Positions 6,328-63,794 of a stretch of DNA of 64,000 nt are shown here, piece after piece. Made by a program: the position numbers and the translations under genes. Numbering within the stretch: position 1 is the stretch's first letter; each line of letters begins with the position of its first letter. The DNA is from Candidatus Aenigmatarchaeota archaeon (GTDB lineage: Archaea; Aenigmatarchaeota; Aenigmatarchaeia; JACPZZ01). The notes beneath the pieces were generated by a model. It saw only the letters and a list, made by a program, of their open reading frames with translations. It made no database searches and was not told the origin of the DNA. The stretch spans positions 10,111 through 74,110 of the forward strand of contig JACPAF010000001.1 in NCBI GenBank assembly GCA_016180965.1, given 5' to 3'.

Positions 6328-6367
6328 AACTGAAACAGATGCATACCAATAGCATCTGTTTCTAGTT
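6328..6367. repeat. tRNA-linked bulged palindromic hairpin (family copy)
   Basis: AACTGAAACAGATGC-ATACCAATA-GCATCTGTTTCTAGTT. The 3' end lies 5 nt (GCGAC) before tRNA-Lys +1. Confidence 0.8.
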
Positions 6368-6372
6368 GCGAC

Positions 6373-6469
6373 GGGCCCATAGCTCAGCCTGGTAGAGCAC
6401 CTGACTCTTAATTGAACTTTTGTTCATCGAGATATCAGGGAGTCGCGAGTTCAAATCTCGCTGGGCCCA
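6373..6469 (+). tRNA. tRNA-Lys-CTT: tRNA-Lys(CTT) with canonical 37/38 intron (6411-6433, 23 nt)
   Basis: Acceptor GGGCCCA/TGGGCCC, D arm GCTC..GAGC, anticodon arm CCTGA-CTCTTA|intron|A-TCAGG, T arm GCGAG-TTCAAAT-CTCGC. BHB has 3 of 4 central pairs. Confidence 0.9.
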
Positions 6470-11816: not shown

Positions 11817-11943
11817 GCCTGGGTGGCTCAGTGGTAGAGCGCCAGAAATTTGGCGAAACTCATAAGGCGATGTATGAGTGTTGAGCTTATGCTATGATAA
11901 CTAAGACATCTGGAAGTCGTGAGTTCGATCCTCACCCCAGGCA
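11817..11943 (+). tRNA. tRNA-Met-CAT: tRNA-Met/Ile2(CAT) with two predicted introns (30/31: 11846-11857; second approx 11866-11908)
   Basis: Acceptor GCCTGGG/CCCAGGC, D arm GCTC-AGTGGTA-GAGC, T arm GTGAG-TTCGATC-CTCAC. Removing both inserts gives CCAGA-CTCATAA-TCTGG. The first intron has a clean BHB core (CGCC/GGCG with 3-nt bulges). The second BHB is relaxed (3 of 4 pairs), so its exact junction is uncertain. Confidence 0.7.
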
Positions 11944-14844: not shown

Positions 14845-14881
14845 GAAACGGACGCATACACAATGACGTCCGTTTCTAGTT
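14845..14881. repeat. tRNA-linked bulged palindromic hairpin (family copy)
   Basis: GAAACGGACG-CATACACAATGA-CGTCCGTTTCTAGTT, ending 6 nt before tRNA-Thr +1. Confidence 0.75.
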
Positions 14882-18409: not shown

Positions 18410-18490
18410 CTAGAAACATACGCTTAACAGCTAGAAGCATACCGTATACTGTATCGGTATGCTTCAGTTTACGACGCGTATGTTTCAGTT
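18410..18490. repeat. Nested pair of family hairpins upstream of tRNA-Leu
   Basis: Outer CTAGAAACATACGC...GCGTATGTTTCAGTT encloses inner CTAGAAGCATACCGTATACTGTATCGGTATGCTTCAGTT (18431-18469). Confidence 0.8.
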
Positions 18491-18821: not shown

Positions 18822-19904
18822 ATGAAAGCATACCTAGGCTATTCGGTTGTCGGCGTGTTTGCGTTTAACCCAGCCGGCGCGCTATTGGACAAGGAGTTTT
18901 TCAAGAAAGACGCGAAACAGATCTCCATCAAATTAAACAACGTAAAAAACGAATTCCTGGACGAAGAACTTGTATTACTTAGAAGACTTGCAAAGAAAGG
19001 CGTAAACGAATTTTTCGGTGCATATCCCAAATCAGGCGAGTTCCAAATTGACCGCGATCCCGAATCTTTGGGCGAAAACAAAGCCAAAGGCGTTTTTCGT
19101 GAAATTGCGCTCACGGATAAGTGGGTTGTTTCGCAGGCCGAATTAAATAAAATCCTGTCAAGCGTCGGATCTGAGAGTTCCAAAGAAGAACTGCGCAACG
19201 TAGAAAAGGATAAAATAGGCATGCGCGTTGTCGGAATGATAGACGAGTTCAGCAGGAACATAAATACGCTTTCAGAACATTTGCGCGAGTGGTACGGTCT
19301 TTACTTCCCGGAGATCAACGGGCTGCTGAAGGACAATGAAAAATTCGTAATTTTCGTGGCGGATAAGACATTGCGCGGAAATTTTGAGCGCGACGGCAAG
19401 AAGTTAGACATAGAAACCGCCGGCATGGAATTCGACGAGAATGATTTAGAAAGCGTGAAACAAGCCGGTTTGACATTAAAACAAATGTATGTTGAGCGCA
19501 GGAATTTGGAAAATTATCTTGAAATACTGGGCAAAAAAATAATGCCGAATATGTCTGCAGTCGCAGGCGCATTGTTAGCGTTCAGGCTAGTATCACAGGC
19601 GGGCGGGTTGGATAAGATTGTAAAACTACCGTCGTCCACAATACAATTGCTCGGTGCCGAGAAAGCTTTATTCAGGTTTTTAAAGAAGCAGGGCAAGGCT
19701 CCGAAACACGGCATAATTTTCTACCATCCTGCCGTAATTTCAGCGCCGATACCAATACGCGGAAAAATAGCGCGTATTGTTGCGTCGAAAATAACCATGG
19801 CGGCAAGGATTGATTTCTATTCCGGCAACGACAAAAGTGCGGCTATGAAAGAAGAGTTGAACCATCTGGTAAATAATGCTTTGGCGCATTTTAGGGAAAA
19901 GTAG
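18822..19904 (+). CDS. nop5: Nop5 (Nop56/58) C/D box sRNP protein
   Basis: About 360 aa. NOP domain (LLGAEKALFRFLK...PKHGIIFYHP). Immediately upstream of fibrillarin. ATG at 18822; the track ORF starts at a TTG at 18813. Confidence 0.9.
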   Translation: MKAYLGYSVVGVFAFNPAGALLDKEFFKKDAKQISIKLNNVKNEFLDEELVLLRRLAKKGVNEFFGAYPKSGEFQIDRDPESLGENKAKGVFREIALTDKWVVSQAELNKILSSVGSESSKEELRNVEKDKIGMRVVGMIDEFSRNINTLSEHLREWYGLYFPEINGLLKDNEKFVIFVADKTLRGNFERDGKKLDIETAGMEFDENDLESVKQAGLTLKQMYVERRNLENYLEILGKKIMPNMSAVAGALLAFRLVSQAGGLDKIVKLPSSTIQLLGAEKALFRFLKKQGKAPKHGIIFYHPAVISAPIPIRGKIARIVASKITMAARIDFYSGNDKSAAMKEELNHLVNNALAHFREK

Positions 19905-19912
19905 TTGGTCAG

Positions 19913-20569
19913 ATGAAGTTAAAGGAAATTTTTCCGGGAGTCTTCCGTATAGACGGCCAGCTGGCTACAAAAAACCTGGTTAATGGAAGATCGTATTCCG
20001 AAAAAATAATAAAAATCAACGGCGAAGAGTACAGGACCTGGAACCCTGAAAAATCCAAAGCTGCTGCAGCAATTGAACGCGGGATAAAAAATTTCCCGAT
20101 AAATAAAGGCTCAAAAATCCTATATCTCGGGATTGCACAAGGCCAGACGGCTTCTTATTTTTCCGACATAATAGGCAACGACGGAATAATTTACGGGGTC
20201 GAATTTTCGGCGCGCGCGGTTAGCGATCTTGTCATCGCGTGTGAAAAAAGGGGAAATATAGTCCCCATAAAAGCGGACGCACGCAAGCCCGAGGATTATT
20301 CCTGGGTCGAAAAGGTCGACGTAATCTACGAAGATGTCGCGGATTCGGAACAAGTCGCTATATTGCTAAGGAACGTTGAGGCGTTCCTGAAAAAGGGCGG
20401 TTATGCAATGATAGGCATAAAGTCGAGAAGCATAGACGTAACGAAAGACCCAAAAAAGATTTTCGAAGAATCCCTGTCTGCCATAAAGGAAAAGATGGAA
20501 ATACTTGACTATGTTACTCTCGATCCGTTTGAAGTCGATCACGCATTTATAGTATGCAAATTAAGTTGA
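19913..20569 (+). CDS. flpA: Fibrillarin-like rRNA/tRNA 2'-O-methyltransferase
   Basis: 218 aa. EYRTWNP..SKAAAAI, ILYLGIAQGQTASY, VYGVEFS motifs. Confidence 0.9.
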   Translation: MKLKEIFPGVFRIDGQLATKNLVNGRSYSEKIIKINGEEYRTWNPEKSKAAAAIERGIKNFPINKGSKILYLGIAQGQTASYFSDIIGNDGIIYGVEFSARAVSDLVIACEKRGNIVPIKADARKPEDYSWVEKVDVIYEDVADSEQVAILLRNVEAFLKKGGYAMIGIKSRSIDVTKDPKKIFEESLSAIKEKMEILDYVTLDPFEVDHAFIVCKLS

Positions 20570-25260: not shown

Positions 25261-28113
25261 TTACGGTTTTACCAGATCAAACCCGAGGAAAATCTTCACG
25301 CCTTCAAACTCCAATGTATCCGAATTACCGTGTTCGCCGTATTCTATTTTCGCTGCGCCAACTGACTTCATTATTGTTTCTTCCCATTTTCTCAATGACC
25401 GCTCGGTTTTTGGATCGGAACGGATGAACAGCAAGATCGATTCGCCCACTTCCAGTTTTTTATCCTTTCTCATTGTTTGCACCTTGCGGACCAATTCCAT
25501 TACCATGCTTTCCTCGATAAGTTCGGCGTCCATGCGTACGTCCAGGAATATTTCCGTACCGCCCGCGGATTTTGATGCCATGTCCTTCTGCGGGTGAGGA
25601 GAAAATAACAATTCTTTTACGTTTCCGGAGTTCTTTATCACATTCACCGCGCCTTCGGATATGCTGTTCTTTTGCACAGAATCGTTTTCTTGTATAACCG
25701 CCTTTCTAAGGGGCCAGCGCAACCTGACGCTGTTCTCCTGCCGCAGCGCGTTTATGGATTCCACGGCCGAACGGACAAATTCCATTTCATCCTCTATATT
25801 GGAACTCGCGCCCCCATTGGATTCGGGCCAATCCTCAAGATGCACCGATTCCTTTTTGCCTGAAACCGATTGGTAGATTATTTCAGAGATGAACGGGCAT
25901 ATTGGAGCTAATACCAACACGAGCTTGCCAAAAACGTAATACATAGTGTAGAACGCAGCGTTTTTATCCGCGCCCTCGTATGTAGGCCACGCACGGTCTC
26001 GGATTAAACGAATGTACCATCTGCTGAAATCTTTCAATACGAAATCCCGAATTAACCGGACGGATTCCGATGCATTGTACGATTCGTTGCTTTTTTTGCA
26101 CGCCGCGACGACATTGTTTATCCTGGATATTATCCATTCGTCTTCAAAATTCAATTTATCGGGTTTGGGGACTTTTTTGCAGTACGACTCCATGAATGAG
26201 AAACTGTTCCACAATGTGTTCATGATATTCATGGATTCTTTTACCGATTCCATGTTAAACGCGAAATCTTCGCCCGTCGGCAGGCCCAAAAGGTACAGCC
26301 TCAAAGCATCTCTACCGTATTTTTCTATGACCTCCTCGGGCGTTATTACATTTCCCTTTGACTTGGACATTTTCGCGCCCTTCAAATCCAAAACCTTGCC
26401 GTGCAGGAGGACATTCTTGAAAGGCGTTTTGCCGAACGTAATCATGCTTGTTATTATCTGGGAATTCCACCAGCCTCGGAATTGGTCGGGCCCTTCTATG
26501 TTCAAATCCGCGGGCCATTTTTCCTTGAATGTTTTTTCGTCTTTCGGAAACCCTATCGAAGCCCATGACGCGACTCCGGAGTCGAACCATACATCAAGCA
26601 CGTCGGGTATGCGTTTCATTTTATTTCCGCACGTGCACTTGAAAAAAACTTCATCGATGTAAGGCCTGTGCAAATCCTCGATTTCGACATTGAGCTCTTT
26701 GGACGAGCCTATGACACGAACGCTGCCGCATTTTTCGCATTCCCATATCGGAAGCGGTATACCCCAATATCTCTGCCGGGATATGGGCCAGTCGCTCAGC
26801 GTGTTTAACCAACTGTCAAAATTATTCGATGCGAATTGCGGATACCAATTGACTTTCTTATTTTCTTCGATAAGTTTTTCACGTATCGCGCTCACGCGAA
26901 AAAACCATTGCGGAACCGCGATAAATAACAATGAAGAATCACAGCGCCAGCATTTCGGGTATTCGTGCGTCGTCGGCTCGACAGCGAACAACGCATTCTT
27001 TTCCCTGAGTTTTTCTATAATTTCCTTGTCAGCGTCTTTTGCGAACATGCCTTCCAACCAACCGGCCTCCGATTTAAATTTACCTCCCATAGTCAGCGGG
27101 GATAAAACGGGTAGGCTGTGTTTCATGCCTACGAGAAAATCTTCCTTTCCGTGTCCGGGAGCCATGTGAACCAGGCCCGTGCCTTCTTCCAATGTAACGT
27201 GCTGGTCAGACGGTACGACACGACCGACGATATTTTTCTGCAACGGCAAATCGTTTAACGGGTTATCATACTCCATCCCTACTAATTGGCTGCCTTTAAT
27301 GGTTCCGATAATTTCGAAATATTCTGTTTTGCCAACGAGAACTTTCTCGGCAAGCTCTTTTGCCAGGATTAATACATCCTTGCCGGACTTTGCGCGAACG
27401 TAATCGTAATTCGGGTTGACCATGATTCCCGTGTTTGACGGCAGAGTCCACGGAGTTGTTGTCCATATTAACAGGCTGTCGTTGCTGTTTTTCACCCTGA
27501 ATTTCACATAAACCGAGTTGTCGCGTACTTCTTTGTGTTCTATTTCGTTGAACGCCACAGCGGTTTCACAATGAGGGCATACATGGACCGGATAAGAACC
27601 TTTGTAGAGCAACCCGTTTTCGAAACCTTTCTTGAACGTGAACCAAGCGCCTTCTATATAACTTTTGCTCAATGTCAAATACGGATTATCCCAATCCATC
27701 CACACGCCCAAATTTTTAAATTGGTCGTTCATTATACCCATGAATTTTGTCGCGAATTTTTTGCATTCTTCATTGAATTTCCCTATCCCGAATTTTTCGA
27801 TGTCCGACTTCGTCCTAAAGTTAAGCTCTTTTTCGATTTTATTTTCTATCGGCAATCCGTGCGTATCGTAGCCCGGTTGCATCGAAACTTCATAGCCTAA
27901 CATGCTGAAAAACCGTATGAAAAAATCCTTCAGCGTTTTGTTCATGGCTGTTCCGAGATGTATGGAACCTGTTGCGTAGGGCGGGCCGTCGAGGAAATAG
28001 TATTTTTTTGCGCCTTTCCTATTTGAAGCGTACTTCCGAAAAATATCGGATTTTTTCCATGAATCCATTGTCTGCTTTTCCAGTTCCAGCGGATTGTAGG
28101 GCCCTCTTTTCAT
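25261..28113 (-). CDS. ileS: Isoleucyl-tRNA synthetase
   Basis: 950 aa. PPYATGSIHLGTAMNK (HIGH), DWPISRQRYWGIPLP, KMSKSKGN. Confidence 0.9.
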   Translation of the reverse strand: MKRGPYNPLELEKQTMDSWKKSDIFRKYASNRKGAKKYYFLDGPPYATGSIHLGTAMNKTLKDFFIRFFSMLGYEVSMQPGYDTHGLPIENKIEKELNFRTKSDIEKFGIGKFNEECKKFATKFMGIMNDQFKNLGVWMDWDNPYLTLSKSYIEGAWFTFKKGFENGLLYKGSYPVHVCPHCETAVAFNEIEHKEVRDNSVYVKFRVKNSNDSLLIWTTTPWTLPSNTGIMVNPNYDYVRAKSGKDVLILAKELAEKVLVGKTEYFEIIGTIKGSQLVGMEYDNPLNDLPLQKNIVGRVVPSDQHVTLEEGTGLVHMAPGHGKEDFLVGMKHSLPVLSPLTMGGKFKSEAGWLEGMFAKDADKEIIEKLREKNALFAVEPTTHEYPKCWRCDSSLLFIAVPQWFFRVSAIREKLIEENKKVNWYPQFASNNFDSWLNTLSDWPISRQRYWGIPLPIWECEKCGSVRVIGSSKELNVEIEDLHRPYIDEVFFKCTCGNKMKRIPDVLDVWFDSGVASWASIGFPKDEKTFKEKWPADLNIEGPDQFRGWWNSQIITSMITFGKTPFKNVLLHGKVLDLKGAKMSKSKGNVITPEEVIEKYGRDALRLYLLGLPTGEDFAFNMESVKESMNIMNTLWNSFSFMESYCKKVPKPDKLNFEDEWIISRINNVVAACKKSNESYNASESVRLIRDFVLKDFSRWYIRLIRDRAWPTYEGADKNAAFYTMYYVFGKLVLVLAPICPFISEIIYQSVSGKKESVHLEDWPESNGGASSNIEDEMEFVRSAVESINALRQENSVRLRWPLRKAVIQENDSVQKNSISEGAVNVIKNSGNVKELLFSPHPQKDMASKSAGGTEIFLDVRMDAELIEESMVMELVRKVQTMRKDKKLEVGESILLFIRSDPKTERSLRKWEETIMKSVGAAKIEYGEHGNSDTLEFEGVKIFLGFDLVKP

Positions 28114-30770: not shown

Positions 30771-30928
30771 CTAGAAATATGTGTTGACAGTAGCACATAT
30801 TTCAGTTAGTAGCTGAAAACAGTCACATACAAGATGTGACTGTTTTAGTTGTAGCTAGAAACATATGAATACCAATTGCATATGTTTCAGTTAGTTACAG
30901 CTAGACTCATACTTCGTATGAGTCAGTT
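30771..30928. repeat. Tandem array of four family hairpins directly upstream of tRNA-Arg
   Basis: H1 30771-30807, H2 30813-30850 (opposite bulge polarity), H3 30855-30892, H4 30901-30928. Flanks AG|CTAGA / CAGTT are conserved, stems differ but stay complementary. H4 ends 7 nt before tRNA +1. Confidence 0.85.
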
Positions 30929-39526: not shown

Positions 39527-40162
39527 GTGTGCCCGAATAATTCTATCAAACTTGATCCCAACAAGGACGTACTAAAAGCTAGATTGTGCGGTTTTTTGGC
39601 TGCCGACGGCAGCGTTTTCATAAGAAAGGAGACCAGAACAGGAAAAATTCACCACTCTATGAGATTTTACCCTGACAACTTAGTACTAGCTCAACTTTTC
39701 AATGACGTGCTAAAAGGCGTTTACGGCAGAGAGGCGGCGATAAAGAGTATGGGAAATTATTACGCTCTATCTTTAACTAGCAAACAAGCTGTCACAGATC
39801 TTTTATCGATAGCCAGTTTCACGTCCAAAGGTTGGACATTTCCTGAAACCATTGTTACCAAAGATGCAAAAATCGAGTGGCTAAGAGCTTATTTTGATTG
39901 TGATGGTTATGTTGGTAAAAAATACATCCAGCTGCAATCGGTCAATGAAAACGGTATAAAAGTGATACAAAAACTGTTAGAAGATTTCGGAATAGAGTCC
40001 AAAATATACGATTATACGAGAAAGAACAAGTCCTGGAACATAAATTATCTGCTGAACATAAACAAGAGGGAAATGCGTATTAAATTTTTGAGAGAAATAG
40101 GGTTCAATCACCCATTAAAAAGGAAGAAATTGGAAAGTTTAATCAATGCCGAGGTCGCATAA
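39527..40162 (+). CDS. Free-standing double-motif LAGLIDADG homing endonuclease-like protein
   Basis: 211 aa, GTG start. Two LAGLIDADG motifs (LCGFLAADGSVF, LRAYFDCDGYVG). The last 15 nt overlap the 5' end of tRNA-Ser. Confidence 0.75.
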   Translation: MCPNNSIKLDPNKDVLKARLCGFLAADGSVFIRKETRTGKIHHSMRFYPDNLVLAQLFNDVLKGVYGREAAIKSMGNYYALSLTSKQAVTDLLSIASFTSKGWTFPETIVTKDAKIEWLRAYFDCDGYVGKKYIQLQSVNENGIKVIQKLLEDFGIESKIYDYTRKNKSWNINYLLNINKREMRIKFLREIGFNHPLKRKKLESLINAEVA

Positions 40163-40320
40163 CCAGGTCAGTGCACCAGATTAAAAAAGGTGATTCTCGA
40201 AAACTGGCGGGCGCAAACAGCTAGAAGCAACAGTAAACCGAAACATGTCATAGACATGTTTCAGTCTGAACCTGCTTCAGTTGGCGATTGCCCATGAGGG
40301 TTCAAATCCCTCCCTCGGCG
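40148..40320 (+). tRNA. tRNA-Ser-CGA: tRNA-Ser(CGA) with 30/31 mini-intron (40180-40194) and 73-nt hairpin insertion in the variable arm (40214-40286)
   Basis: GCCGAGG-TC-GCAT..GTGC-A-CCAG|15 nt|T-CTCGAAA-ACTGG-CGGGCG|73 nt|ATTGCCCAT-GAGGG-TTCAAAT-CCCTC-CCTCGGC-G. Discriminator G. The mini-intron has BHB core CACC/GGTG. Confidence 0.7.
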
Positions 40321-40990: not shown

Positions 40991-41824
40991 TCATTCCCAA
41001 AATTCCTTGATTATTTCCTCGGATATCCGCGTTATGACGCGCTCAGGCACGAAAATTTCCATTGAAATGGTCTTGCCGTATTTTATTTTTTTCAATTCTT
41101 TCACGGTCCTGCGGAAATCTATTGACGCGATCCCGACCGGCAGGTGCTCGTCCATTTTCCCGTGGTTGTCGTGCATGTGTATGTGCTGGATGCGTTTACC
41201 GAATTTTTTGATGTGGTTCGAAATAGATTTCATGCCTCCGCCTATGAACGCATGGCCGATGTCAAGATTCACAGCGAGCCCGTCGACTTTTGAAATTATT
41301 TTTTGGAAGTCCTTTATCGATGACATTTCTGTGGTGTTTTCCAACATCACGACCATCGAATCACCGGCGTAATCCACCAGCTTCTTCATGTTCTCGATGT
41401 AGTTTGATATAACCTCTTTCAGCGTGCCGCGATCCGATAGCATCATGCTCTGCGAATGTGCGTGGAAAGTTATTTTTTCTATATTTATCCTCTTTCCCGC
41501 GTCTATGACCTTTTTACATTCTTCTAACCACGCGTCGCGCACTATTTCGTGCGGGCTGCCAAGATCTATCCACCACGCCGCGTGCCCGAGCGCGAACATC
41601 CTATGTTTTTTGATTATCCTGTTTATTTTGCCCGCCCTATTCGCGATTATTTTCGGCGACCCTTCCGGCTCCTCAATCCCGATTTCTACGAAATCAAAAT
41701 TAAGCGCCGCGATTTCACGTATTTCCTGCATCAAGTCCAATGAGGGATTTGTAGTTGTGCCGAACTTTGGCAGGCCTGGTTGATTGAAACGCATCTTGGA
41801 TGCGTTTCTGTCTGTCTCTACCAT
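40991..41824 (-). CDS. Sugar phosphate isomerase/epimerase (xylose-isomerase-like TIM barrel)
   Basis: 277 aa. FVEIGIEEPE, ITFHAH, LENT, NLDIGHAF, IHMHDNHG metal-site pattern. Confidence 0.7.
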   Translation of the reverse strand: MVETDRNASKMRFNQPGLPKFGTTTNPSLDLMQEIREIAALNFDFVEIGIEEPEGSPKIIANRAGKINRIIKKHRMFALGHAAWWIDLGSPHEIVRDAWLEECKKVIDAGKRINIEKITFHAHSQSMMLSDRGTLKEVISNYIENMKKLVDYAGDSMVVMLENTTEMSSIKDFQKIISKVDGLAVNLDIGHAFIGGGMKSISNHIKKFGKRIQHIHMHDNHGKMDEHLPVGIASIDFRRTVKELKKIKYGKTISMEIFVPERVITRISEEIIKEFWE

Positions 41825-47611: not shown

Positions 47612-49063
47612 ATGAAATTGGCTCTATTTGGTATCATTTTGGCTGTGATAGTTTCTGGTTGTACGGGTACAGGTGATTCAGGCAACACAGGAACAGGCGG
47701 ATCGGTTATCATAAAATCATTTTCTGCCGACGAAACAAATTTACAAGGCAACGACAGGACAACGCTTTCAACTGAAATTATCAACACAGGAGACTCAAAA
47801 GCCACCGCTGTTAAAATACAATTATTAGATTTGGATACGGCTTGCGCGCAACCTTCATGCGATTCGACGGAAACACAGTGGGGGTTGTCCAGCGGAAAGA
47901 CGAGCGATGTACTCACCGATTTGAGGATAAACACGCCGGGTGAAGAGGCCATAGCAAAACAATACAACTGGCGCGTGCAATCGCCAAAATTGCCGGCTAA
48001 TTTGCCACAGACCTACGATGCCAAAGCGAGAGTTTCATTCGGATATTCGACCACAGCTATCAAACAAATAAAAATTGTCACCCTATCTGAATACCAGAGG
48101 TTAAAAACGAACGGACAGACGTTGCCTGTTACTACAGCACAGCCGTCTAACGGGCCTTTAAAGATCGACGTAAGAGTGGCAGAGCCCGTCAGGATTGAAG
48201 AGGGTTCCACTACGTTCTTGCTTGTCATTGAAGTTACTAACCTGATTGGCGGAACCACGTTCCTGGCCGATAACCCGAACGACGTGTCAAAATGGAACCT
48301 GGCCAATTTGAAATTAACGCTTCCTTCAGGGCTTGCGATGGCAGAAACGAGCGGGGATTGCGCAGCCATCACAAGCAGCGTCACCATCGAGCTTTCAAAG
48401 GGCAAAAGTTACAAAACGCAATGCGAAGTCAAGACCACAACAAACATCCCGGTTTCGGTGGACAAGACCGTCAACGTTAAAGCTGATTACGGGTACTTTG
48501 TCGAATCCAAACTGTCCGTGCCTATATCGGTTATAGGAAAATCCAATTATGTCCCGCCTTCGGGCGGCGGTGCACCAGGACAGGCCGGAACAGGCACAGT
48601 AACACCTCCCGCGTCCGGCGGCTCAACTGCACCGGATACCGAACCGCCTAACACGGTTAGAAATATACAAGTCCAAAAATTCGCAGGACAACCCGGAACA
48701 GCGAGCGCGGGCAAGTGGCAATACACAATAAGTTTCCTCGAGCCATCCGACAATGTGGGCGTTGCGGGTTTTGAAATATATGTAGGCACAATCCAGCCAG
48801 CCACAGGAACTTGGAATACTGCTACTCTGGATGCCAGCAATGAAGTTAAGAAACAAGGCCTTGCATCCAATATACCGCTCGGTTCGAGAACACCTCAAGG
48901 AGGAACTGTGGAATCATTCCCACCCAACGGCGTGGCTAGATTGCTTTTAGATCCGAATACATCATATTGGATAGGCATTCTTGCTGTGGATGCCAGTGGA
49001 AACAGGGGAGACTTGTCAACATCCGCGGGTTCTGTAATCCAAATACAAACAGGTTCTTTCTAG
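47612..49063 (+). CDS. Putative lipoprotein with CARDB-like domains, Pro/Gly linker and FN3-like C-terminal domain
   Basis: 483 aa. MKLALFGIILAVIVSGC signal. STEIINTGDSKATAVKIQLLD. Linker PPSGGGAPGQAGTGTVTPPASGG. C-terminal VRNIQVQ...FEIYVG...YWIGILAVDASGNRG. Confidence 0.6.
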   Translation: MKLALFGIILAVIVSGCTGTGDSGNTGTGGSVIIKSFSADETNLQGNDRTTLSTEIINTGDSKATAVKIQLLDLDTACAQPSCDSTETQWGLSSGKTSDVLTDLRINTPGEEAIAKQYNWRVQSPKLPANLPQTYDAKARVSFGYSTTAIKQIKIVTLSEYQRLKTNGQTLPVTTAQPSNGPLKIDVRVAEPVRIEEGSTTFLLVIEVTNLIGGTTFLADNPNDVSKWNLANLKLTLPSGLAMAETSGDCAAITSSVTIELSKGKSYKTQCEVKTTTNIPVSVDKTVNVKADYGYFVESKLSVPISVIGKSNYVPPSGGGAPGQAGTGTVTPPASGGSTAPDTEPPNTVRNIQVQKFAGQPGTASAGKWQYTISFLEPSDNVGVAGFEIYVGTIQPATGTWNTATLDASNEVKKQGLASNIPLGSRTPQGGTVESFPPNGVARLLLDPNTSYWIGILAVDASGNRGDLSTSAGSVIQIQTGSF

Positions 49064-50337
49064 AATTTTTGTTTTGCGAATTCGCCCAGGCCTTTCTGCC
49101 CTGATTTTTGCATCTCAAACGAGCCTTCGAACAACGGAACTCCGTAGACGCCGTCGTAGCCCGGCTTAAATTTTAGCTCCCCATTACGCGATTTTATTAT
49201 TGCGTTTGCGATTTTTTCGTGCGTGATCTTTTTTAACTCGTTTTCAGGGACGTTCATCAACACGTTTAACTCTGTGCCAAATTGCGAGATTATTTTATCG
49301 TGTTCTTCGGTGACTTTTTTAGAGTATAATGCGTTGACACCGGTGACGTGCGATATTATCTCATACAACGGCAATAATGTTTTGAATGGTATCGCGTTTT
49401 TAGGAACAAAACCAACAGGACGGTCGGCTAATTGTTCAACACGACTGAGAACGCCTATTGTTAATCCCCGTTTGCAGCGCGGGCAAATACCATTTAATTT
49501 TTTTGTTTCAGACGGCTCTAAAGAAACGTTACAGTCTTTGTGGCCATCTAAATGGTATTTTCCATAATTCGGGTCGCACTCAATTGTATATAAAAACTTT
49601 TCCTTGTCCTTGTTTTTTATTGCATCGAAGATTTTGTTGTATGTGGGGTTTTCAATATCAAATACGTTCGCCTCTCTTCCTAACCTCCAAGGCCATGGTG
49701 AATGTGCGTCGGAATTTGAGATTAATGCAAACTTGTCCAAACTTGAAATGTTCCAGCACATCGCGGGATCCGCTGATAGGCCTGTTTCGATCGCGAAAAT
49801 GTTTTTTGTCTGATCCTGAAAACATTCTTCCACTGAGTTAAAACCGGATTTCGAACCGAAAATTGAAAACCATGGCGTAAACGAATGGGCTGGTATGATA
49901 AATGCATCTTTAGATATTGACACCACCAGTTCTGTAAATTCCGGACAGGTTATGTTTGTTAATATCGGACGTCCGTCTGCGGAAAGGTTTCCGTATCTGC
50001 TTAATTTTTCATTAATTTGGTCTACGATTTCGAAACTTGGAGCGAAAATCATGTTGTGGACTTTTTTGCTCACGCCGTTGACATAGTAAATCAGCGAAAC
50101 TTCCGATGTCAGCATAAAAGCTGTTTTCGTTTTGTTGTCCGTGAACAATCCCGTGCCATTAATTTCCTTCAATGAAGATTTCAAATCTTCCAAATGTTTC
50201 GGGTGTGTGAAATCGCCTGTTCCGAGAATGTCCAAGCCTTTCGTTTCTGCGAATTTTCCAAGCGTGTGTATGTTCATCTGGGGTGATGTGGCGCGGCTGT
50301 ATTTCGAATGTATCTGGAGGTCTGCGATAATTTTCAT
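49060..50337 (-). CDS. endoQ: Endonuclease Q-like PHP-domain nuclease with zinc ribbon
   Basis: Start moved to the ATG at 50337 (MKIIADLQIHSKYSRATSPQM...GTGDFTHP). CPRCKRGLTIGVLSRVEQL zinc ribbon. The 37 extra N-terminal codons in the track ORF overlap tRNA-Ile. Confidence 0.7.
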   Translation of the reverse strand: MKIIADLQIHSKYSRATSPQMNIHTLGKFAETKGLDILGTGDFTHPKHLEDLKSSLKEINGTGLFTDNKTKTAFMLTSEVSLIYYVNGVSKKVHNMIFAPSFEIVDQINEKLSRYGNLSADGRPILTNITCPEFTELVVSISKDAFIIPAHSFTPWFSIFGSKSGFNSVEECFQDQTKNIFAIETGLSADPAMCWNISSLDKFALISNSDAHSPWPWRLGREANVFDIENPTYNKIFDAIKNKDKEKFLYTIECDPNYGKYHLDGHKDCNVSLEPSETKKLNGICPRCKRGLTIGVLSRVEQLADRPVGFVPKNAIPFKTLLPLYEIISHVTGVNALYSKKVTEEHDKIISQFGTELNVLMNVPENELKKITHEKIANAIIKSRNGELKFKPGYDGVYGVPLFEGSFEMQKSGQKGLGEFAKQKF

Positions 50338-50372
50338 AGAGAATATTCCTTTGCCAGATGTAAAAATAGAAG

Positions 50373-50574
50373 TGGGCCCGACCGGATGATCGGCTGACAC
50401 ATCGCAGCTAGGCACACACAAGATGTGTGCCGATTTGCCGTGTGTCAAGCTTTCGAACCGGCGACCATGCCGTTGCTATCCATTGCAATTACGGCGTCTA
50501 CGCAGCTTAGTTTCGCAAGCAAATGCTTGCGGGCCTTATAAGACCGTCGCTCTACCAAGCTGAGCTACAGGCCC
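50373..50574 (-). tRNA. tRNA-Ile-TAT: tRNA-Ile(TAT) with three predicted introns (38/39: 50496-50535; variable loop: 50467-50489; T-loop 59/60: 50387-50451)
   Basis: Reverse complement gives GGGCCTG-TA-GCTC-AGCTTGGTA-GAGC-G-ACGGT-CTTATAA|40 nt|GCCGT-A|23 nt|GGTC-GCCGG-TTCGAA|65 nt|T-CCGGT-CGGGCCC-A. BHB cores: TTAT/GTAG (two G.U), GCCG/CGGC (perfect), TTCG/CGAT (3 of 4). Confidence 0.7.
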
Positions 50575-50586
50575 ACTTTGTCGACC

Positions 50587-50622
50587 GAAGCATACCGATA
50601 CAGTATACGGTATGCTTCTAGT
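50587..50622. repeat. Family hairpin just 5' of tRNA-Ile (minus-strand sense)
   Basis: GAAGCATACCGATACAGTATACGGTATGCTTCTAGTT. The reverse complement of 50588-50622 is identical over 35 nt to 18431-18465. An additional ACTGGCG..CGCCAGT hairpin lies at 50633-50657. Confidence 0.85.
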
Positions 50623-52667: not shown

Positions 52668-53860
52668 TTAAATTCGTTTTTGCTTCAACAACCCCATCCA
52701 TCGATTCGTACCGAGTCTTAGATCTATACCCGACGCCGCCGCCGGTGTCATCCCTAACGCCATGTGCGGACGGATGAAGTTGTAGTAGTTGCGGAAACCA
52801 ACCGAGAAGACCGCCTCACCGCCCTTGAACCCACGCATAACCTTATCTCGCTCTCGGAACGTGCCGTGAAACCGCTCTACGAGGTTGTTGTCAGGCTTCT
52901 TGCGGATGCTCTCCAGCCTGATATGCTGAACCCTATCGGGGTGTCGTCCGTGAGCATGATATTCGTCCTTTAGGGCTTGGTAGTAGCTTTGCAGACCATC
53001 CGTAACTACGAACTTTGGTAGTGTGCCAGCCGTCTCTTTGGCTAGCCTTAAAATCTGGCTCGCCTCACCTATTGTCCGTCCGTTGGTTACGTTGTTGGCT
53101 ATCAAAAATCGTGTCTTCTCGTCAACCATGTTCCAGACCCATCTCTCCCTGCCTTCGGACTTGATAGCCTGCTCATCCAGATGCCATGCTTCGCTTAATC
53201 TCGGTTTTAGGTCTTTGGTGTAGTCGTTGATCTTCTCTGTGAACTTGGTTATCCATTGCCTTACGGTTTCGTGGCTGACGACCACACCGTAGAACTGCTT
53301 TAGCGTGTCCGAGATCTCACGCAATGACAAACCCTTGTAATACAAATCCATAGCCAGCATTGCTATTTTGCTGTCAACGCTAAGGCGAGCGAAAACGCTG
53401 TCTTTGATAAACGTCTTTTTGCAGTCGAGGCATTGAAACCTCTGCTTAACACCATTGGTTGTTTTCCTGTTTCCGTTTTTCTTAATGTTGGTTGATTTGC
53501 AGTATTCGCATTTCGTTTTATCCTCGTCCGCAAACGGTATTGTGCTGTCGTCAACTTTCGCCCTCATTTTCAATAAAAACTCAACAGCATGGATGTGTTT
53601 GCATTTTTCTTTCCTATGAATAAAGTCGGGACATTCACACAGCCAACGCTTCTTTAGGACTACTTTATATTTCCTGTCCGAGTTCTGCGAAGGGACTAAA
53701 AACGTCTCCTTGTCAATAATCCTTGGCGTGTCGCCTTTGGCTATAATAGCGTAGCCCCTGATCTTTCTTGGGTCATCTTTAGGTTGTCTATTTGTTAACA
53801 TCATGTTAACTATTATGTAGGCTTAACTATTTAAACCTATGTTAACAAGACTTTAACATG
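52580..53860 (-). mobile_element. Insertion sequence (boundaries approximate)
   Basis: Single transposase gene. Weak candidate terminal repeats GGTTTAAT.. (52580) versus the reverse complement of ..ATTTAAACC (53838). 9-nt direct repeat CTATTTAAA at 52616 and 53827. Ends not resolved. Confidence 0.45.
52668..53804 (-). CDS. IS6-family-like DDE transposase with N-terminal SWIM and zinc-ribbon fingers
   Basis: 378 aa. CECPDF..CKHIH (SWIM-like), CEYC..CLDC ribbon. DDE core WHLDEQ..., FVVTDGLQSY, NNLVERFHGTFRERDKVMRGFK. Confidence 0.8.
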   Translation of the reverse strand: MMLTNRQPKDDPRKIRGYAIIAKGDTPRIIDKETFLVPSQNSDRKYKVVLKKRWLCECPDFIHRKEKCKHIHAVEFLLKMRAKVDDSTIPFADEDKTKCEYCKSTNIKKNGNRKTTNGVKQRFQCLDCKKTFIKDSVFARLSVDSKIAMLAMDLYYKGLSLREISDTLKQFYGVVVSHETVRQWITKFTEKINDYTKDLKPRLSEAWHLDEQAIKSEGRERWVWNMVDEKTRFLIANNVTNGRTIGEASQILRLAKETAGTLPKFVVTDGLQSYYQALKDEYHAHGRHPDRVQHIRLESIRKKPDNNLVERFHGTFRERDKVMRGFKGGEAVFSVGFRNYYNFIRPHMALGMTPAAASGIDLRLGTNRWMGLLKQKRI

Positions 53861-54789: not shown

Positions 54790-56436
54790 ATGGTAAATGC
54801 AACAATGGGACAGATTGGCGGACAGCCTGTATTGATATTGCCCGAAGGCGCGCTGCGCTCGACTGGAAAAGATGCACAGCGCAATAATATTGCTGCTGCG
54901 AAAGCTGTCGGTGATGCTATACGAACTACGCTAGGCCCGCGAGGAATGGATAAGATGCTTGTTGACTCATTAGGCGATGTCGTTATCAGCAACGACGGCG
55001 CCACGATTTTGAGCGAGATGGAAATTGAACATCCCGCTGCAAAAATGATGGTTGAAATTTCAAAGACGCAAGACGAAGAAGTCGGCGACGGCACTACAAC
55101 TGTTGTAGTTTTAGCTGGCACAATGTTAAAGAAGGCTGAAGAACTTCTAGACCAAGATGTCCATCCTACTGTCATAACGAAAGGTTACCGCACAGCAAAG
55201 GAAAGGGCGTTGGAAGTTGTGAGAAACATTTCGAAATCTATCTCGATCAACGACGAAGAGAAGCTTGTGCAAATCGCAACAACAGCGATGAACAGCAAGG
55301 CTGTCGGAGAAAACACGGACAAATTGGCGCGGGTGATTGTCAAAGCTGTCAAAGAAATTTCCGAAACAACTGATGGAAAAACTTTGATCGACGTTGAAAA
55401 TGTAAAGCTTGAAAAGAGGCAGGGCGGCGGGATCGTAGACACGGAATTGATAAAAGGAATTGTCATCGACAAAGATGTGGTCCATCCGTCGATGCCGAAA
55501 AAATCCGAGAATGCAAAAATAGCATTATTGGACGTTGCGCTTGAAGTCAAGGAGTTGGAAACTGACGCCGAGATAAGGATAACGTCGCCGGAGCAGATGC
55601 AATCATTCCTTGCAGAGGAAGAGAGAATGCTAAAGGATATGGTTGAGAAAATCGCCGCTACCGGAGCGAATGTTGTTTTCTCCCAGAAAGGTATCGATGA
55701 TGCTGCGCAACATTACATGGCGAAGAAAGGTATTTTGGCCTCGAGGCGGGTTAAAAAGTCTGACATGGACAAATTGGCGCGCGCCACTGGAGCGAAAGTT
55801 ACGTCAAGCATAAATGACCTGAGCTCAAGCGACCTGGGTTTCGCAGGAATTGTCGAAGAGAAAAAAGTTTCCGGCGAGCAGATGGTTTTCGTGCAGAAAT
55901 GCAAGGATCCTAAAGCGGTTACGATTTTGATACGCGGCGGTTCTGAGCATATCGTTGACGAAGTCGAGCGTGCGGTTAACGATGCTATCAAAGGCGTTGC
56001 TGCGGCTGTTGAGATGGGCAAATATGTTGCTGGGGGCGGGGCGCCCGAAGCTGAAATCGCGAGACAATTGAGAAAATTAGCAGAAAGTTTCCCTGGGCGT
56101 GAGCAGTTGGCGATAAACGCGTTCGCCGATGCCATGGAAGTAATTCCGCGCACGCTTGCAGAGAACGCGGGTTTGGATACGATCGACATGTTAGTTAAGT
56201 TGCGCGCAGAGCATGACGCAGGAAATGCGTCGGCTGGTGTGGATGTTTTGAACGGCAGGATAAGCGACATGGAAAAATTAAATGTCATTGACCCGCTGAA
56301 GACAAAGATACAGGCCATAAATTCCGCTTCGGAAGCTGCGGAAATGATATTGAGGATAGATGATGTCATTTCGGCGAGCAAGTTAAACAAGGGCGGAGGC
56401 ATGCCTGCTGGCATGCCGGACATGGGCGGGGAATAG
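54790..56436 (+). CDS. ths: Thermosome subunit (group II chaperonin)
   Basis: 548 aa. [30 protein letters not shown] motifs. GGAGG about 10 nt upstream of the ATG. Confidence 0.95.
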
Positions 56437-59828: not shown

Positions 59829-62800
59829 ATGAGAAAAGCCGCGGCAAAAAAGCAGTCGATGCAGGAAATAACCGAAACTGTTGAAAAAAACGAGGACGCT
59901 TCGAAAGCTGTGGGAAAAATTGTTTCTAGGGCGCTTGCTGTGAAACCGGAAAAGGGGTTCGTCGTTCCGAAATCAAAAGTTCGGCTGGTTGTTAGGAAAC
60001 TCATAGGCGCATCAGGTTACAAACAGGAACGCCGGGAAAATCCGATAGAAGAAATAATTAACAACCCGCAAAAACTGAAAAAAATCGCGGAGAAATATGG
60101 CGTTTCCGAATCTTCCATAGAGGATATTTACCACAGGCTGACAAGGCTGGAAGACCGCTCACGGCCAGGCATGTCGCCCGAAGACATGTTATCTTTGCGC
60201 AACGATTTGGCATCGGTCAAATCCGCGCCGGATTTTGGAAGATTAAACGACATAGATGAAATACGCCAAAGCCTTTCCGGAATTGAAGAACGCCTTGAGA
60301 ATGGAACTTCGAGCGCGGAGGACAAATTGCGCGAGGCTGAAATAGAAAGAGACAGCCTGGTTAAATCAAAGGACGAGGTCGAACGCAAATATTACAAACG
60401 GGAAATAGACGAACAAACTTTCAAAAAAATGATTTCGGATTACGAACAACAATTGATAAAAACCGAGGAAAAAATAAAAAGTTACCGGGCGCAAGGAACT
60501 AAACTGGGAATACCGAGGCCGGGCATAAAAATGGATCGCGTGTTCGAAAAATATGCCAAAGGCTTCAAAGCGGTTTATTTTCCAGTCTACGGCCAGGCCA
60601 TGCAACAGCAGATGATGCAGCCCGTGCAAGCTGTACAGCAAAACACAGAATCTCTGCGCCCTATTATAGCGATTGAAAGCAAAAACGTGATATCAAAAAG
60701 CGTTATCGACGGGATAGAAATACCGGACATGTCCAAGAAGGCCGAGCCGATTGACGCGGAACAAATTGAAAACATAATGAACATAAATGTAGTTTATCCG
60801 CTGATTCCGAGGGCGCCCGCAAAAGGCGAGACAGTTTATTCGTACACCAACATCAAATGGGACCAGCCGGACAACGCATTAGTTTACAACGTATTCGAGC
60901 CCGGGCTGACAGCTGAGGAAAAACACATACTTTCCAAGAGCAAAGAACTTCTTGAAGAGCGGTTAAACATAGACCTTCGAAAACTCCGAAAAGCCGAGGC
61001 GGTCAGCTATCTGATGAGACAAACGGATGACGTTTTTTCATTGATGGGCATCAAATTGGACCAGAAAAGGGTCGATGTGCTAAAATATTACATCAAAAGG
61101 GACTTTGTCGGACTGGAAAGGATAGACCCGATGATGAATGACCCGAACATAGAAGACATAAGCTGCGACGGCACGAACATACCGATTTACATATTTCACA
61201 GAAACCCGCTGATAGGTTCGATAAGGACAAACGTGAAATTCACCGACCAGAGAACACTGGACAATTTTGCGGTCAGGCTTGCGCAACGCGCGGGCAAAAA
61301 TATATCCGTTGCTAATCCCCTGTTGGACGGCACACTAACAGACGGCTCGCGAGTGCAAGCGACTCTAGGAACTGATATAGCGAGGCGCGGGTCGAATTTC
61401 ACAATAAGAAAATTTACCGATATACCATTAACTCCGATTGACATGCTGAATTACGGGACGATGAATGCGACAGCGCTTGCCTACCTTTGGATGGCTGTGG
61501 AAAACGGCAAATCTGTTTTAATCGGCGGATCAACCGCATCCGGTAAAACGACTTTGTTGAACGTGTTGTCCCTTTTCATAAAGCCCAACAAGAAAATAAT
61601 TTCGATTGAAGACAGCGTGACGGGAGACTCCGAAATACTGGTTAACAGGAACGGGTCGTTTGAAAAATTGCCGATTGAAAAATTGGTTGACGGACAGATA
61701 GAGAAGTACGGCAACGAAAAAGACGTCTTCGGCACGGAGTACTGCCAAACGAATCCGGAGGGCGTGCAAACTTTTTCAATGGATACAGAAGGAAAAATAA
61801 AACTCTGCCCGGTCAGGTCCTTTGTCAGGCACCGTGTAAACAAAGACGTTCTTGAGGTCACAACAAGGGCTGGCAGGAGAATCAAAGTTACGGGTGACCA
61901 TTCACTTTTTTCCTTGGACACGAATGGGAAAATAATTCCGGTAGAAGCGAGGAGCCTGCTAAAGGGAAGTTTTATAGCGACGCCAAGAACCTTACCGCAC
62001 GATACTAGAAAGCTGGAAAGCATCAACCTGCTTTCCGAAGCAAAATATTTGGAAGGCGTGTTCGTGGAAGGGGACGGATTGAAACACATACCAATACCGG
62101 AGTTGGTGAGGGCGGGCGCGAATGGGCGTCAAAAAAATAAATGTATTACGGACGGCCTGATTCCGGTGGAAATTTTCAACAGACTTAACAACGCTGAAGA
62201 ATTTATCGACGCACCAGGCGGGCTTTCGATAAAAGCCGGGCGGGGAGGCAAGGCTGTGAAAGCCGTTCTCAAACTGACTGACGAATTTTTAACATTGGTC
62301 GGCCTTTGGCTTGCAGACGGATGTTATGACAAAAATTCCGTTTTGATATCCGCTGCGAATGACGCTGAATGTAAATACTCCATAGAGCAGGCGGCATCCC
62401 AATTGGGGCTGGACTGCAAATACCACAGCGACGGGATAACGTACATGATAAACTCAACCGTACTCAAAAAGGTGATGGAAAATATTCTCGGGATTCGCGG
62501 GGACGCGTATACGAAAAGGGTTCCCGACTGGGTTTATAATCTAGGGATCGAGCAGATTTCCTGCCTGCTAAAAGGTTATTTCAGCGGGGACGGTTCGGTT
62601 TCAAAGGATGAGATAGAGGCAAGTTCTTCGTCCATCGGACTGATTAAAGACGTACACACCATGATGCTAAGGTTGGGAATAATGTCAAGGTTCACCACAA
62701 AGATCAAGGAGCGCGACAAAACCTATAGGATCCGGATAAGCGGATCTGAAAACCTGAAGATGTTCTGCAAAAAAATCGGCTTTTTACAAAAATACAAACA

Positions 62801-63794
62801 GGAAAAATTGGCTAATCGGTCGTTGATATTTGCAAACCATACAATTACCGATGTTATTCCTGTTACGAAAGAATTTTTGAGTGCATTGGCCGAGGAGGGC
62901 GCAATTTTTAACAGCAATTCATATTGGTACGGCAGCAAAATAGGCAGGAATGCCATGGGTAAAGCTGTTTTGCAAGGCGAAGGTAAATTCTTGTCCAAAG
63001 CCGCGCAGCTTGCAAATTCGGATCTTCTTTGGGACGAGATACTGGAAATACGAAACCTGGGCAAAACAGAACTTTATGTTTATGACCTCAGCGTCCCGAA
63101 TTTCGAAAATTTTGTGTGCGAAAATGTTATAGCGCACAATACGCCTGAATTACGTTTACCGCACCCTCACTGGGTGCCCGAGGTTGCGAGGACCGCAATA
63201 TCGGACACCGAAGGCAGGAAGATGGGAGAGGTAGACATGTTTGACCTGCTAAAAGAAAGTTTAAGACAACGGCCGGATTACATAATAGTCGGCGAAGTGC
63301 GAGGCAAAGAGGCGTACGTTTTATTCCAGCAAATGGCGTCGGGCCATCCTGGCATGTCCACGATACACGCCGACAGCATATCCAAACTTGTTGACAGATT
63401 AACAACGCCGCCGATAAGCCTGCCGGGCAACCTGATACAAAACCTTGACGTCCTGATATTCAGCGACACAACCAGCTTCAAGAGCAAGAACGTCAGGAAG
63501 ATAGACACGATAATGGAAATTGTCGGATATGAAAACGGCGCGCCGGTAGGCAATGTCGTTTTCAAATGGGATCCTGTGAAGAATTACCTGCGGGTTGTCG
63601 GGAAAAGCGCGCTTCTCAAAAAAATCGCGTACAGCAACAACATGTCGGAAAAAAACGTACGCGAGGAAATTTCTAACCGTGTGAAAGTTTTGGAGTGGAT
63701 GCAGGACAAGGGGATAAACGGTTTTTCATCGGTCGCTAAAATGTTCAACTTGTACACATCGGACCCGGAAAAAGCCCTTGCCATGGTCGATTAA
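59829..63794 (+). CDS. FlaI/PilB/VirB11-type secretion ATPase (type IV pilus assembly), intein-containing, with long N-terminal coiled-coil extension
   Basis: ATG at 59829 (upstream in-frame TTG at 59808). IEDISCDG, Walker A GGSTASGKTT, split Asp box IISIED|...|TPEL, IIVGEVRGKEA, His box SGHPGMSTIHA. Confidence 0.85.
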   Translation: MRKAAAKKQSMQEITETVEKNEDASKAVGKIVSRALAVKPEKGFVVPKSKVRLVVRKLIGASGYKQERRENPIEEIINNPQKLKKIAEKYGVSESSIEDIYHRLTRLEDRSRPGMSPEDMLSLRNDLASVKSAPDFGRLNDIDEIRQSLSGIEERLENGTSSAEDKLREAEIERDSLVKSKDEVERKYYKREIDEQTFKKMISDYEQQLIKTEEKIKSYRAQGTKLGIPRPGIKMDRVFEKYAKGFKAVYFPVYGQAMQQQMMQPVQAVQQNTESLRPIIAIESKNVISKSVIDGIEIPDMSKKAEPIDAEQIENIMNINVVYPLIPRAPAKGETVYSYTNIKWDQPDNALVYNVFEPGLTAEEKHILSKSKELLEERLNIDLRKLRKAEAVSYLMRQTDDVFSLMGIKLDQKRVDVLKYYIKRDFVGLERIDPMMNDPNIEDISCDGTNIPIYIFHRNPLIGSIRTNVKFTDQRTLDNFAVRLAQRAGKNISVANPLLDGTLTDGSRVQATLGTDIARRGSNFTIRKFTDIPLTPIDMLNYGTMNATALAYLWMAVENGKSVLIGGSTASGKTTLLNVLSLFIKPNKKIISIEDSVTGDSEILVNRNGSFEKLPIEKLVDGQIEKYGNEKDVFGTEYCQTNPEGVQTFSMDTEGKIKLCPVRSFVRHRVNKDVLEVTTRAGRRIKVTGDHSLFSLDTNGKIIPVEARSLLKGSFIATPRTLPHDTRKLESINLLSEAKYLEGVFVEGDGLKHIPIPELVRAGANGRQKNKCITDGLIPVEIFNRLNNAEEFIDAPGGLSIKAGRGGKAVKAVLKLTDEFLTLVGLWLADGCYDKNSVLISAANDAECKYSIEQAASQLGLDCKYHSDGITYMINSTVLKKVMENILGIRGDAYTKRVPDWVYNLGIEQISCLLKGYFSGDGSVSKDEIEASSSSIGLIKDVHTMMLRLGIMSRFTTKIKERDKTYRIRISGSENLKMFCKKIGFLQKYKQEKLANRSLIFANHTITDVIPVTKEFLSALAEEGAIFNSNSYWYGSKIGRNAMGKAVLQGEGKFLSKAAQLANSDLLWDEILEIRNLGKTELYVYDLSVPNFENFVCENVIAHNTPELRLPHPHWVPEVARTAISDTEGRKMGEVDMFDLLKESLRQRPDYIIVGEVRGKEAYVLFQQMASGHPGMSTIHADSISKLVDRLTTPPISLPGNLIQNLDVLIFSDTTSFKSKNVRKIDTIMEIVGYENGAPVGNVVFKWDPVKNYLRVVGKSALLKKIAYSNNMSEKNVREEISNRVKVLEWMQDKGINGFSSVAKMFNLYTSDPEKALAMVD
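61614..63140 (+). mobile_element. Intein (509 aa) with LAGLIDADG homing-endonuclease domain
   Basis: Starts SVTGDSEIL (Ser1), block B VTGDHSLF, DOD motifs LVGLWLADGCYD and LLKGYFSGDGSV, ends VIAHN followed by Thr+1. Splicing it out restores the canonical IISIED-TPEL. Confidence 0.85.

Follow-up and report, generated by a model that had tools for sequence, protein, structure and literature searches.

The window (the whole 64,000-nucleotide stretch of Candidatus Aenigmatarchaeota DNA analysed here) very probably holds a functional tRNA-Ile gene with a genomically encoded UAU anticodon and three BHB introns, the spliced product of which most likely replaces TiaS and tRNA-Ile2(CAU). The original prediction, a 202-nt tRNA-Ile gene with three introns, a UAU anticodon and a 74-nt product, is upheld by detection of the spliced sequence, by the geometry of the BHB motifs, by nine orthologues and by alleles that lack one or another of the introns.

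A tRNA-Ile(UAU) in four exons

The gene lies on the minus strand, with its 5' end at 50574 and the discriminator A73 at 50373, and its 202-nt precursor consists of four exons (39 + 6 + 15 + 14 nt) separated by three introns (Table 1). Joining of the exons gives a 74-nt tRNA, GGGCCTGTAGCTCAGCTTGGTAGAGCGACGGTCTTATAAGCCGTAGGTCGCCGGTTCGAATCCGGTCGGGCCCA, for which the MFE structure is a cloverleaf (-30.3 kcal/mol) and which ARAGORN calls as tRNA-Ile(tat). The 5' half reads GGGCCUG-UA-GCUC-AGCUUGGUA-GAGC-G-ACGGU-CUUAUAA and the 3' end UCCGGU-CGGGCCC-A. The MFE fold, ARAGORN and RNAalifold all describe a class I elongator cloverleaf, with a 7-bp acceptor stem, a 4-bp D stem, a 5-bp anticodon stem and 7-nt loop (U33 and a purine at 37), a 5-nt variable loop, a 5-bp T stem with the loop UUCGAAU, and a discriminator base. 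The anticodon U34 A35 U36, the hallmark of an Ile3 tRNA, is encoded in the genome at 50540-50538 within an isoleucine-type body. The spliced tRNA aligns free of gaps with seven intron-less and one spliced DPANN tRNA-Ile(UAU) genes, and RNAalifold on that alignment gives 21 pairs, 10 of which show compensatory changes. CCA is not encoded, and the T-rich tract directly 3' of the gene, comparable to the tracts that trail the orthologues (CTCATTTTTTAC / CTTTATTTTTAA), is likely to be an archaeal oligo-T terminator.

In the raw window, the unspliced locus was called neither by ARAGORN, with or without its intron mode, nor by the Rfam tRNA model at the gathering threshold, and a gene of this kind is therefore easily missed.

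Table 1. Features of the tRNA-Ile(UAU) locus, in window coordinates.
Feature	Length and sequence	Position	Strand	Site or class	Content
Hairpin	GAAGCATACCG-(10 nt)-CGGTATGCTTC	50587..50618	-	palindromic	ends 13 nt upstream of the tRNA-Ile(UAU) 5' end
Exon 1	39 nt	50536..50574	-		acceptor 5' strand, D arm, 5' anticodon stem, whole loop CUUAUAA (positions 1-38)
Intron 1	40 nt	50496..50535	-	38/39, relaxed BHB (HBh')	
Exon 2	6 nt, GCCGUA	50490..50495	-		3' anticodon stem 39-43 and position 44
Intron 2	23 nt	50467..50489	-	44/45, strict hBHBh'	
Exon 3	15 nt, GGUCGCCGGUUCGAA	50452..50466	-		variable loop 45-48, 5' T stem, T loop 54-59
Intron 3	65 nt	50387..50451	-	59/60, near-strict BHB	
Exon 4	14 nt, UCCGGUCGGGCCCA	50373..50386	-		position 60, 3' T stem, 3' acceptor strand, discriminator A73
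T-rich tract	CTTCTATTTTTAC	50360..50372	-		directly 3' of the gene

BHB motifs and predicted order of splicing

Intron boundaries were placed by a rule that cuts after nucleotide 2 of each 3-nt bulge flanking a 4-bp helix, a rule that gives the expected product for the canonical 37/38 intron of locus L106. A strict hBHBh' motif is taken as two 3-nt bulges with a 4-bp helix between them and outer and inner helices on either side. The geometry of the motifs, together with the comparison with orthologues and intron-less alleles, bears out the predicted sites at 38/39, 44/45 and 59/60. The original prediction had also given each intron a plausible BHB core, and of these GCCG/CGGC (intron 2) stands as a strict motif, TTCG/CGAT (intron 3) forms only three of its four pairs and TTAT/GTAG (intron 1) belongs to a relaxed motif with a 2-nt bulge on its 3' side.

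Intron 2 carries the best-scoring motif of the locus. Its central helix GCCG/CGGC has all four pairs, the bulges are UAA and AUG, and the helix is flanked by a 3-bp outer helix (GAC/GUC) and a 4-bp inner helix (UUGC/GCAA). One side of the central helix, GCCG, is also the 3' strand of the anticodon stem; the GAC of the outer helix comes from the last three nucleotides of intron 1. Across orthologues intron 2 measures 22-33 nt with the CGGC core fixed, and the inner helices differ yet stay paired (covariation in five). Two alleles without the intron (L134 and L135) read GCCGTAGGTC, exactly the predicted spliced junction GCCGTA|GGTC, and exon 2 is contiguous with exon 3 in these and in L132.

Intron 3 uses the 5-bp T stem as its outer helix, with bulges AAA and CAU and a central helix in which a U54·U mismatch accompanies the pairs U-A, C-G and G-C. 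The inner helix GCU(U)GACACA/UGUGUCAGC extends for at least 3 bp, resumes past a 1-nt bulge and encloses the hairpin GGCACACA-UCUUG-UGUGUGCC. A CTAG-flanked hairpin had been predicted in this intron (GGCACACA..TGTGTGCC); the hairpin is there, and CTAG lies on one side of it only, not both. Four alleles that lack intron 3 (L001, L101, L127 and L129) read GGTTCGAATCCGG, again exactly the predicted junction, TTCGAA|TCCGG. In L134 and L135 the introns at 59/60 likewise form three central pairs out of four, with the mismatch at the opposite end to that of intron 3.

Intron 1 departs from the strict form and fits the relaxed HBh' class. All four pairs of its central helix form between U33U34A35U36 and GUAG, two of them G·U; the 5' bulge is A37 A38|G (AAG), the inner helix GC/GC has 2 bp, and on the 3' side a 2-nt bulge (AC|) lies opposite C32 with the outer helix out of register. 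This core is present in all orthologues, and the chosen register and A38 are supported by L132, which has GUAA for GUAG (turning U33·G into U33-A) and ends the intron in AU, not AC. The intron also contains an internal hairpin, CGCAAGC-AUUU-GCUUGCG, in which L129 and L134 show compensatory changes. Both the intron-2 and the intron-3 motif appear in the precursor's MFE structure (z = -5.7).

Self-splicing group I or II introns were rejected as an explanation, the introns measuring 23-65 nt against a ribozyme core of more than 200 nt and the Rfam intron models giving zero matches in the window; a split or permuted tRNA is ruled out by the colinear exons. A search of the window for paralogous copies of the three introns returned only chance-level matches of at most 15 nt.

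Following the known archaeal pathway, the 202-nt precursor would be transcribed from the minus strand, its BHB motifs cut by the archaeal splicing endonuclease and the exons joined by an RtcB-type ligase. Splicing would be ordered: intron 2 must go first because its BHB ties up both GCCG and the 3' end of intron 1, and only once it has left could the anticodon stem form, and with it the relaxed motif of intron 1. Intron 3, which uses the T stem, would be removed independently. Cleavage would be by a splicing endonuclease of broad specificity, as described for DPANN archaea (PMC3239211, PMC5829648), with ligation to follow; the 11 introns in the ten tRNA genes of the window, including introns at 30/31 and in variable arms, imply that the host endonuclease must accept relaxed motifs.

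Intron 1 contains a segment, CUAAGCUG, that is complementary to the D loop and D arm and is conserved while other parts of the intron diverge; its counterpart is CAAGCUG in L134 and L135 and CUGAGC in L132. Thermodynamic folding favours pairing of intron 1 with the D arm, along with GGUCU/AGGCC pairing (G29-U33), over the D stem, the anticodon stem and the intron-1 BHB. The antisense segment and the pairing of GGCC with G29-C32 may keep the precursor folded in an alternative way. Such a fold could enforce the order of splicing, or it could make U34-A37 accessible to an intron-dependent modification against misreading of AUG, by analogy with eukaryotic tRNA-Ile(UAU).

Other tRNA genes of the window

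Ten tRNA genes occur in the 64 kb (at 6373, 11817, 14888, 17568, 30936, 40148, 41984, 42687, 43018 and 50373), and their 11 introns include other non-canonical sites. This intron density resembles that reported for Thermoproteales. The nine genes besides tRNA-Ile(UAU) are detected by ARAGORN and the Rfam tRNA model, with some labels from ARAGORN in error (Lys as Ile, Ser as Phe, CAU as Leu). The gene called as Phe(aaa) at 40148-40320 (+) is a tRNA-Ser(CGA) interrupted twice, by 15 nt at 30/31 and by an intron of about 70 nt in its variable arm, and a 167-aa ORF with a LAGLIDADG_3 domain (39659-40162, +) ends 15 nt inside its 5' end.

The CAT-anticodon tRNA predicted at 11817-11943 (+) is confirmed and has two introns of its own, one of 12 nt at 30/31 (bulge-helix-loop, helix CGCC/GGCG) and one of 43 nt at 37/38 or 38/39. 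The longer of these carries UGAGCU, complementary to the D arm of the same tRNA. The G1-C72 pair and A73 mark it as a non-initiator tRNA. The acceptor stem (GCCUGGG) and U8-G9 presumably resemble those of archaeal elongator tRNA-Met, and, judged by the acceptor stem, elongator Met is its most likely identity; the original prediction had allowed either elongator Met or Ile2.

Intron turnover among relatives

Nine orthologues were retrieved, seven through a conserved neighbouring gene and two through a DNA pattern. Most adjoin the same endonuclease-Q-like gene, which in the window occupies 49060-50337 on the minus strand, and the identity of its protein to the window's copy is given in Table 2. 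In the distant relatives L131 and L133 synteny is lost, and the UAU gene was not found beside their endonuclease-Q gene.

Table 2. Introns of orthologous tRNA-Ile(UAU) genes.
Locus	Source	Neighbour identity	Intron 1	Intron 2	T-loop intron	Other
L126	GCA_016202815.1	87%	enlarged, 78 nt	26 nt	38 nt, ends as window's intron 3	
L134	GCA_053536235.1	87%	present	none	80 nt, AT-rich, unrelated, 59/60	
L135	SRR22388321	87%	present	none	125 nt, AT-rich, relative of that in L134	
L127	GCA_016177205.1	84-85%	present	present	none	
L001	GCA_053536375.1	80%	present	present	none	
L101	JAZDLW01	75%	present	present	none	
L129	SRR16110278	73%	present	present	none	
L132	GCA_053536555.1	65-66%	17 nt	none	none	D-loop insertion, about 40 nt

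The exons are identical across the orthologues save for position 65 (U/C) and a few changes in the acceptor and T stems of L132, and exon 1 is identical in L001, L101, L126, L129, L134 and L135. The introns vary in sequence, length and presence. The D-loop insertion of L132 (about 1100-1235 of that locus), for which several boundary registers score alike, adds a fourth intron position for tRNA-Ile(UAU). Compared at the sequence level, the set of introns turns over quickly among close relatives, and the pattern disagrees with the tree of the neighbouring gene: L134 and L135 have in common the loss of intron 2 and a second type of T-loop intron, and L126 and L127 a hairpin insertion in intron 1. 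This mismatch suggests an exchange of alleles, or repeated gain and loss of introns, among relatives.

The palindromic hairpin upstream of the gene (Table 1) occurs as nested copies in L126 and as a compensatory variant in L129 and is absent from L134 and L135. It belongs to a family of hairpins, of the form CYGAAAC-stem-loop-stem-GTTTCRG or GAAGCATACCG…CGGTATGCTTC, found in the window at 6332-6362, 14845-14876, 30858-30888, 50587-50618, 18413-18486, 41786-41808 and 40240-40262. Ahead of tRNA-Lys, tRNA-Thr and tRNA-Ile(UAU) a member ends about 10-13 nt before the gene, ahead of tRNA-Arg about 48 nt before it, and the variable-arm intron of tRNA-Ser contains one copy. The insertion in intron 1 of L126 and L127 is an element of this family too. 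The pattern GAAACN{12,40}GTTTC has 12 matches in the window against 4.1 expected, and the family could represent promoter context or a small mobile element.

A wider reading joins these observations, in which BHB introns are actively mobile at the strain level in this Aenigmatarchaeota clade and the alternative fold of intron 1 has a role; as a combination it is speculative and more doubtful than not by a good way. Were the introns mobile, unrelated introns may have entered the same 59/60 site, the 44/45 and D-loop introns may come and go, and the GAAAC…GTTTC hairpins may invade introns and enlarge them.

Several other genes lie in the window. A DDE transposase (IS240/IS6-like; 52668-53804, -) sits between tRNA-Ile(UAU) and the thermosome gene (54790-56436), and is absent at that place in L001; in protein sequence the thermosome matches Candidatus Aenigmatarchaeota MAGs with 89-93% identity, and the endonuclease-Q-like protein beside the tRNA has a 100% identical counterpart in a 'Candidatus Aenigmarchaeota archaeon' from NCBI, which makes the host a DPANN archaeon. 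Nop56/58 and fibrillarin are encoded at 18822-20569 (+), and a T2SSE-type ATPase (59829-63794, +) carries an intein with a LAGLIDADG domain.

Decoding of AUA

Across 43 long ORFs of the window AUA is the commonest isoleucine codon, chosen at 666 of 1308 isoleucine positions (51%), or 39 times per 1000 codons. As the predicted AUA decoder, tRNA-Ile(UAU) is thus a major tRNA that matters to the cell. The 74-nt product is predicted to read AUA and most likely replaces TiaS and the agmatidine-modified tRNA-Ile2(CAU), as in Nanoarchaeum, Korarchaeum and ARMAN. The window also encodes an IleRS (25261-28113, -; TIGR00392, 895 bits) and Elp3, the radical-SAM/GNAT enzyme for cm5U at tRNA U34 (9658-11064, -).

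The Pfam domain of TiaS was not found among the 43 ORFs of the 64-kb window, and tblastn with a verified N-terminus of A. fulgidus TiaS returned nothing in the window or the fetched loci. Likewise, tiaS/K06932 is absent from the supplementary tables of two DPANN genomics papers, tables that are not full gene inventories, and a full-text literature search for TiaS or agmatidine with DPANN names found no relevant paper.

Alternative readings

The strongest of the alternatives accepts the gene as real and makes it redundant, the genome also keeping TiaS and a tRNA-Ile2(CAU), for which the tRNA at 11817-11943 would be the candidate. Such a reading draws on the presence in the same window of a CAU tRNA that, with G1-C72 and A73, is no initiator. 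To our knowledge every archaeon requires an elongator tRNA-Met(CAU), however, and the window shows just one such gene; its acceptor GCCUGGG and U8-G9 also differ from the GGGCC…UA of the isoleucine tRNA. The TiaS domain is absent from the window and from all fetched loci, published archaea with a UAU tRNA lack both TiaS and tRNA-Ile2 (PMC3239211, PMC8450103), and a weaker point in the same direction is the absence of tiaS/K06932 from the tables of an Aenigmarchaeota genomics paper, which list only putative horizontally transferred genes. Redundancy is accordingly judged unlikely. A narrower question is where exactly intron 1 is cut. Shifting the junction one nucleotide upstream on both sides, to the canonical 37/38, gives the loop CUUAUAC with C38, and C38 is the base in seven of seven intron-less DPANN homologues; the last nucleotide of the intron here is likewise C. 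Yet in that register the central helix, worked out by hand with the cut rule tested on L106, has only one of four pairs, the last intron nucleotide of L132 is U, and A38 is kept in nine of nine orthologues of the clade. The shifted register was rejected on its pairing and seems quite improbable, and the anticodon is UAU either way.

That the locus is a decayed tRNA pseudogene, unspliced, non-functional and riddled with small mobile hairpin insertions, would account for its being missed by standard tRNA finders, and hairpin elements do insert into or beside such genes. Against this, the exons are invariant in nine genomes despite diverged flanks and introns, each insertion is framed by a BHB motif in which the geometry of the cleavage sites is conserved, alleles without an insertion are precise, and the codon concerned is the commonest for isoleucine. 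Near-invariant exons, varying introns and exact intron-less junctions together are taken to rule out chance and a pseudogene, the latter having a very slim probability. Even slimmer odds would attach to another joining of the exons, with the 5' cut after positions 33-35, which on paper is permitted by the UA that ...CUUA and ...GUAGAC have in common and would give the loop CUUAGAC with a UAG anticodon, hence a leucine tRNA. No BHB exists at those cut sites, and the tRNA class is wrong: tRNA-Leu has a long variable arm, and the body here is class I with a 5-nt variable loop and is closest to DPANN tRNA-Ile(UAU). This joining was rejected, and the three-intron tRNA-Ile(UAU) spliced at 38/39, 44/45 and 59/60 is retained.

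Comparison with known systems

In eukaryotic tRNA-Ile(UAU) the intron is needed for formation of the ΨAΨ anticodon. As in the gene described here, the intron pairs with the UAU anticodon and the tRNA must read AUA and not AUG; unlike it, the eukaryotic gene contains just one intron, at 37/38, which a eukaryotic endonuclease excises.

Among archaea, Nanoarchaeum equitans and Korarchaeum cryptofilum use a UAU tRNA-Ile ('Ile3') in place of TiaS and agmatidine-modified tRNA-Ile2 (PMC8450103, PMC6000648). The Ile3 gene of K. cryptofilum has an intron, like the one here, whereas both organisms belong to other phyla and have at most one intron in this gene, against three here (PMC8450103, PMC6000648). 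The ARMAN-2, -4 and -5 genomes (DPANN) have a UAU tRNA-Ile and are reported without TiaS and tRNA-Ile(CAU) (PMC3239211). These Micrarchaeota and Parvarchaeota, described by Fujishima et al. in 2011, share with the present case membership in the DPANN, a genomic UAU and an anticodon-adjacent intron, as well as non-canonical introns elsewhere, including one at 59/60 in ARMAN tRNA-Cys (PMC3239211). In contrast, the tRNA-Ile(UAU) of ARMAN-2 has one strict intron, at the canonical 37/38 (PMC3239211), and the gene here, from the phylum Aenigmatarchaeota, has three (38/39 relaxed, 44/45 and 59/60). The use of UAU in place of a TiaS-modified CAU in small-genome archaea, part of the original prediction, agrees with these published cases (PMC8450103, PMC6000648, PMC3239211).

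The original prediction called a genomic UAU rare; within the DPANN it is not rare, with at least 17 archaeal loci from at least seven named lineages. A pattern scan of genome contigs for UAU tRNA-Ile gave at least 120 matches, a sample of taxa and not a census. Among the matches listed, the gene occurs in Nano-, Pace-, Woese-, Micr-, Iain- and Aenigmatarchaeota and in one Promethearchaeota MAG, and 7 of the 17 archaeal UAU genes are intron-less. The gene of the Promethearchaeota (Asgard) MAG (L037), among the matches listed, has an intron. Most of the pattern matches listed as loci L006-L125 come from Patescibacteria (CPR) MAGs and Streptomyces. With the UAU tRNA-Ile not rare within the DPANN, its presence here is less surprising; the locus and the scan suggest that UAU is the usual solution to AUA across the DPANN and CPR and not a curiosity of two or three genomes. 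Aenigmatarchaeota would thereby join the archaea predicted to read AUA by a genomic UAU anticodon. The locus is also a warning, in that ARAGORN and the Rfam tRNA model both overlook the predicted decoder of the commonest isoleucine codon, and automatic annotation of MAGs may for this reason report a missing AUA decoder.

Genes with several introns have their closest parallel in the Thermoproteales, such as Pyrobaculum calidifontis, with up to three BHB introns per tRNA gene, canonical and non-canonical (cited in PMC8450103). The same source describes that one intron sometimes has to leave before the next BHB forms, and the gain and loss of introns between relatives (PMC8450103). The Thermoproteales are Crenarchaeota with an (αβ)2 endonuclease, and the multi-intron genes described for them are not UAU tRNA-Ile, whereas the host here is a DPANN archaeon and the turnover is visible between genomes with 84-87% identity in the neighbouring protein. 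Related archaea had thus already shown both a UAU tRNA-Ile and a multi-intron tRNA gene. New here are the phylum, the pairing of UAU with three introns in one gene and the fine scale of the intron turnover, and the added value lies in this strain-level turnover, read from sequence comparison, in which one and the same site, 59/60, has come to carry unrelated introns. The nine orthologues together offer a clean natural series in which to follow how archaeal tRNA introns are gained, lost and replaced at short evolutionary range.
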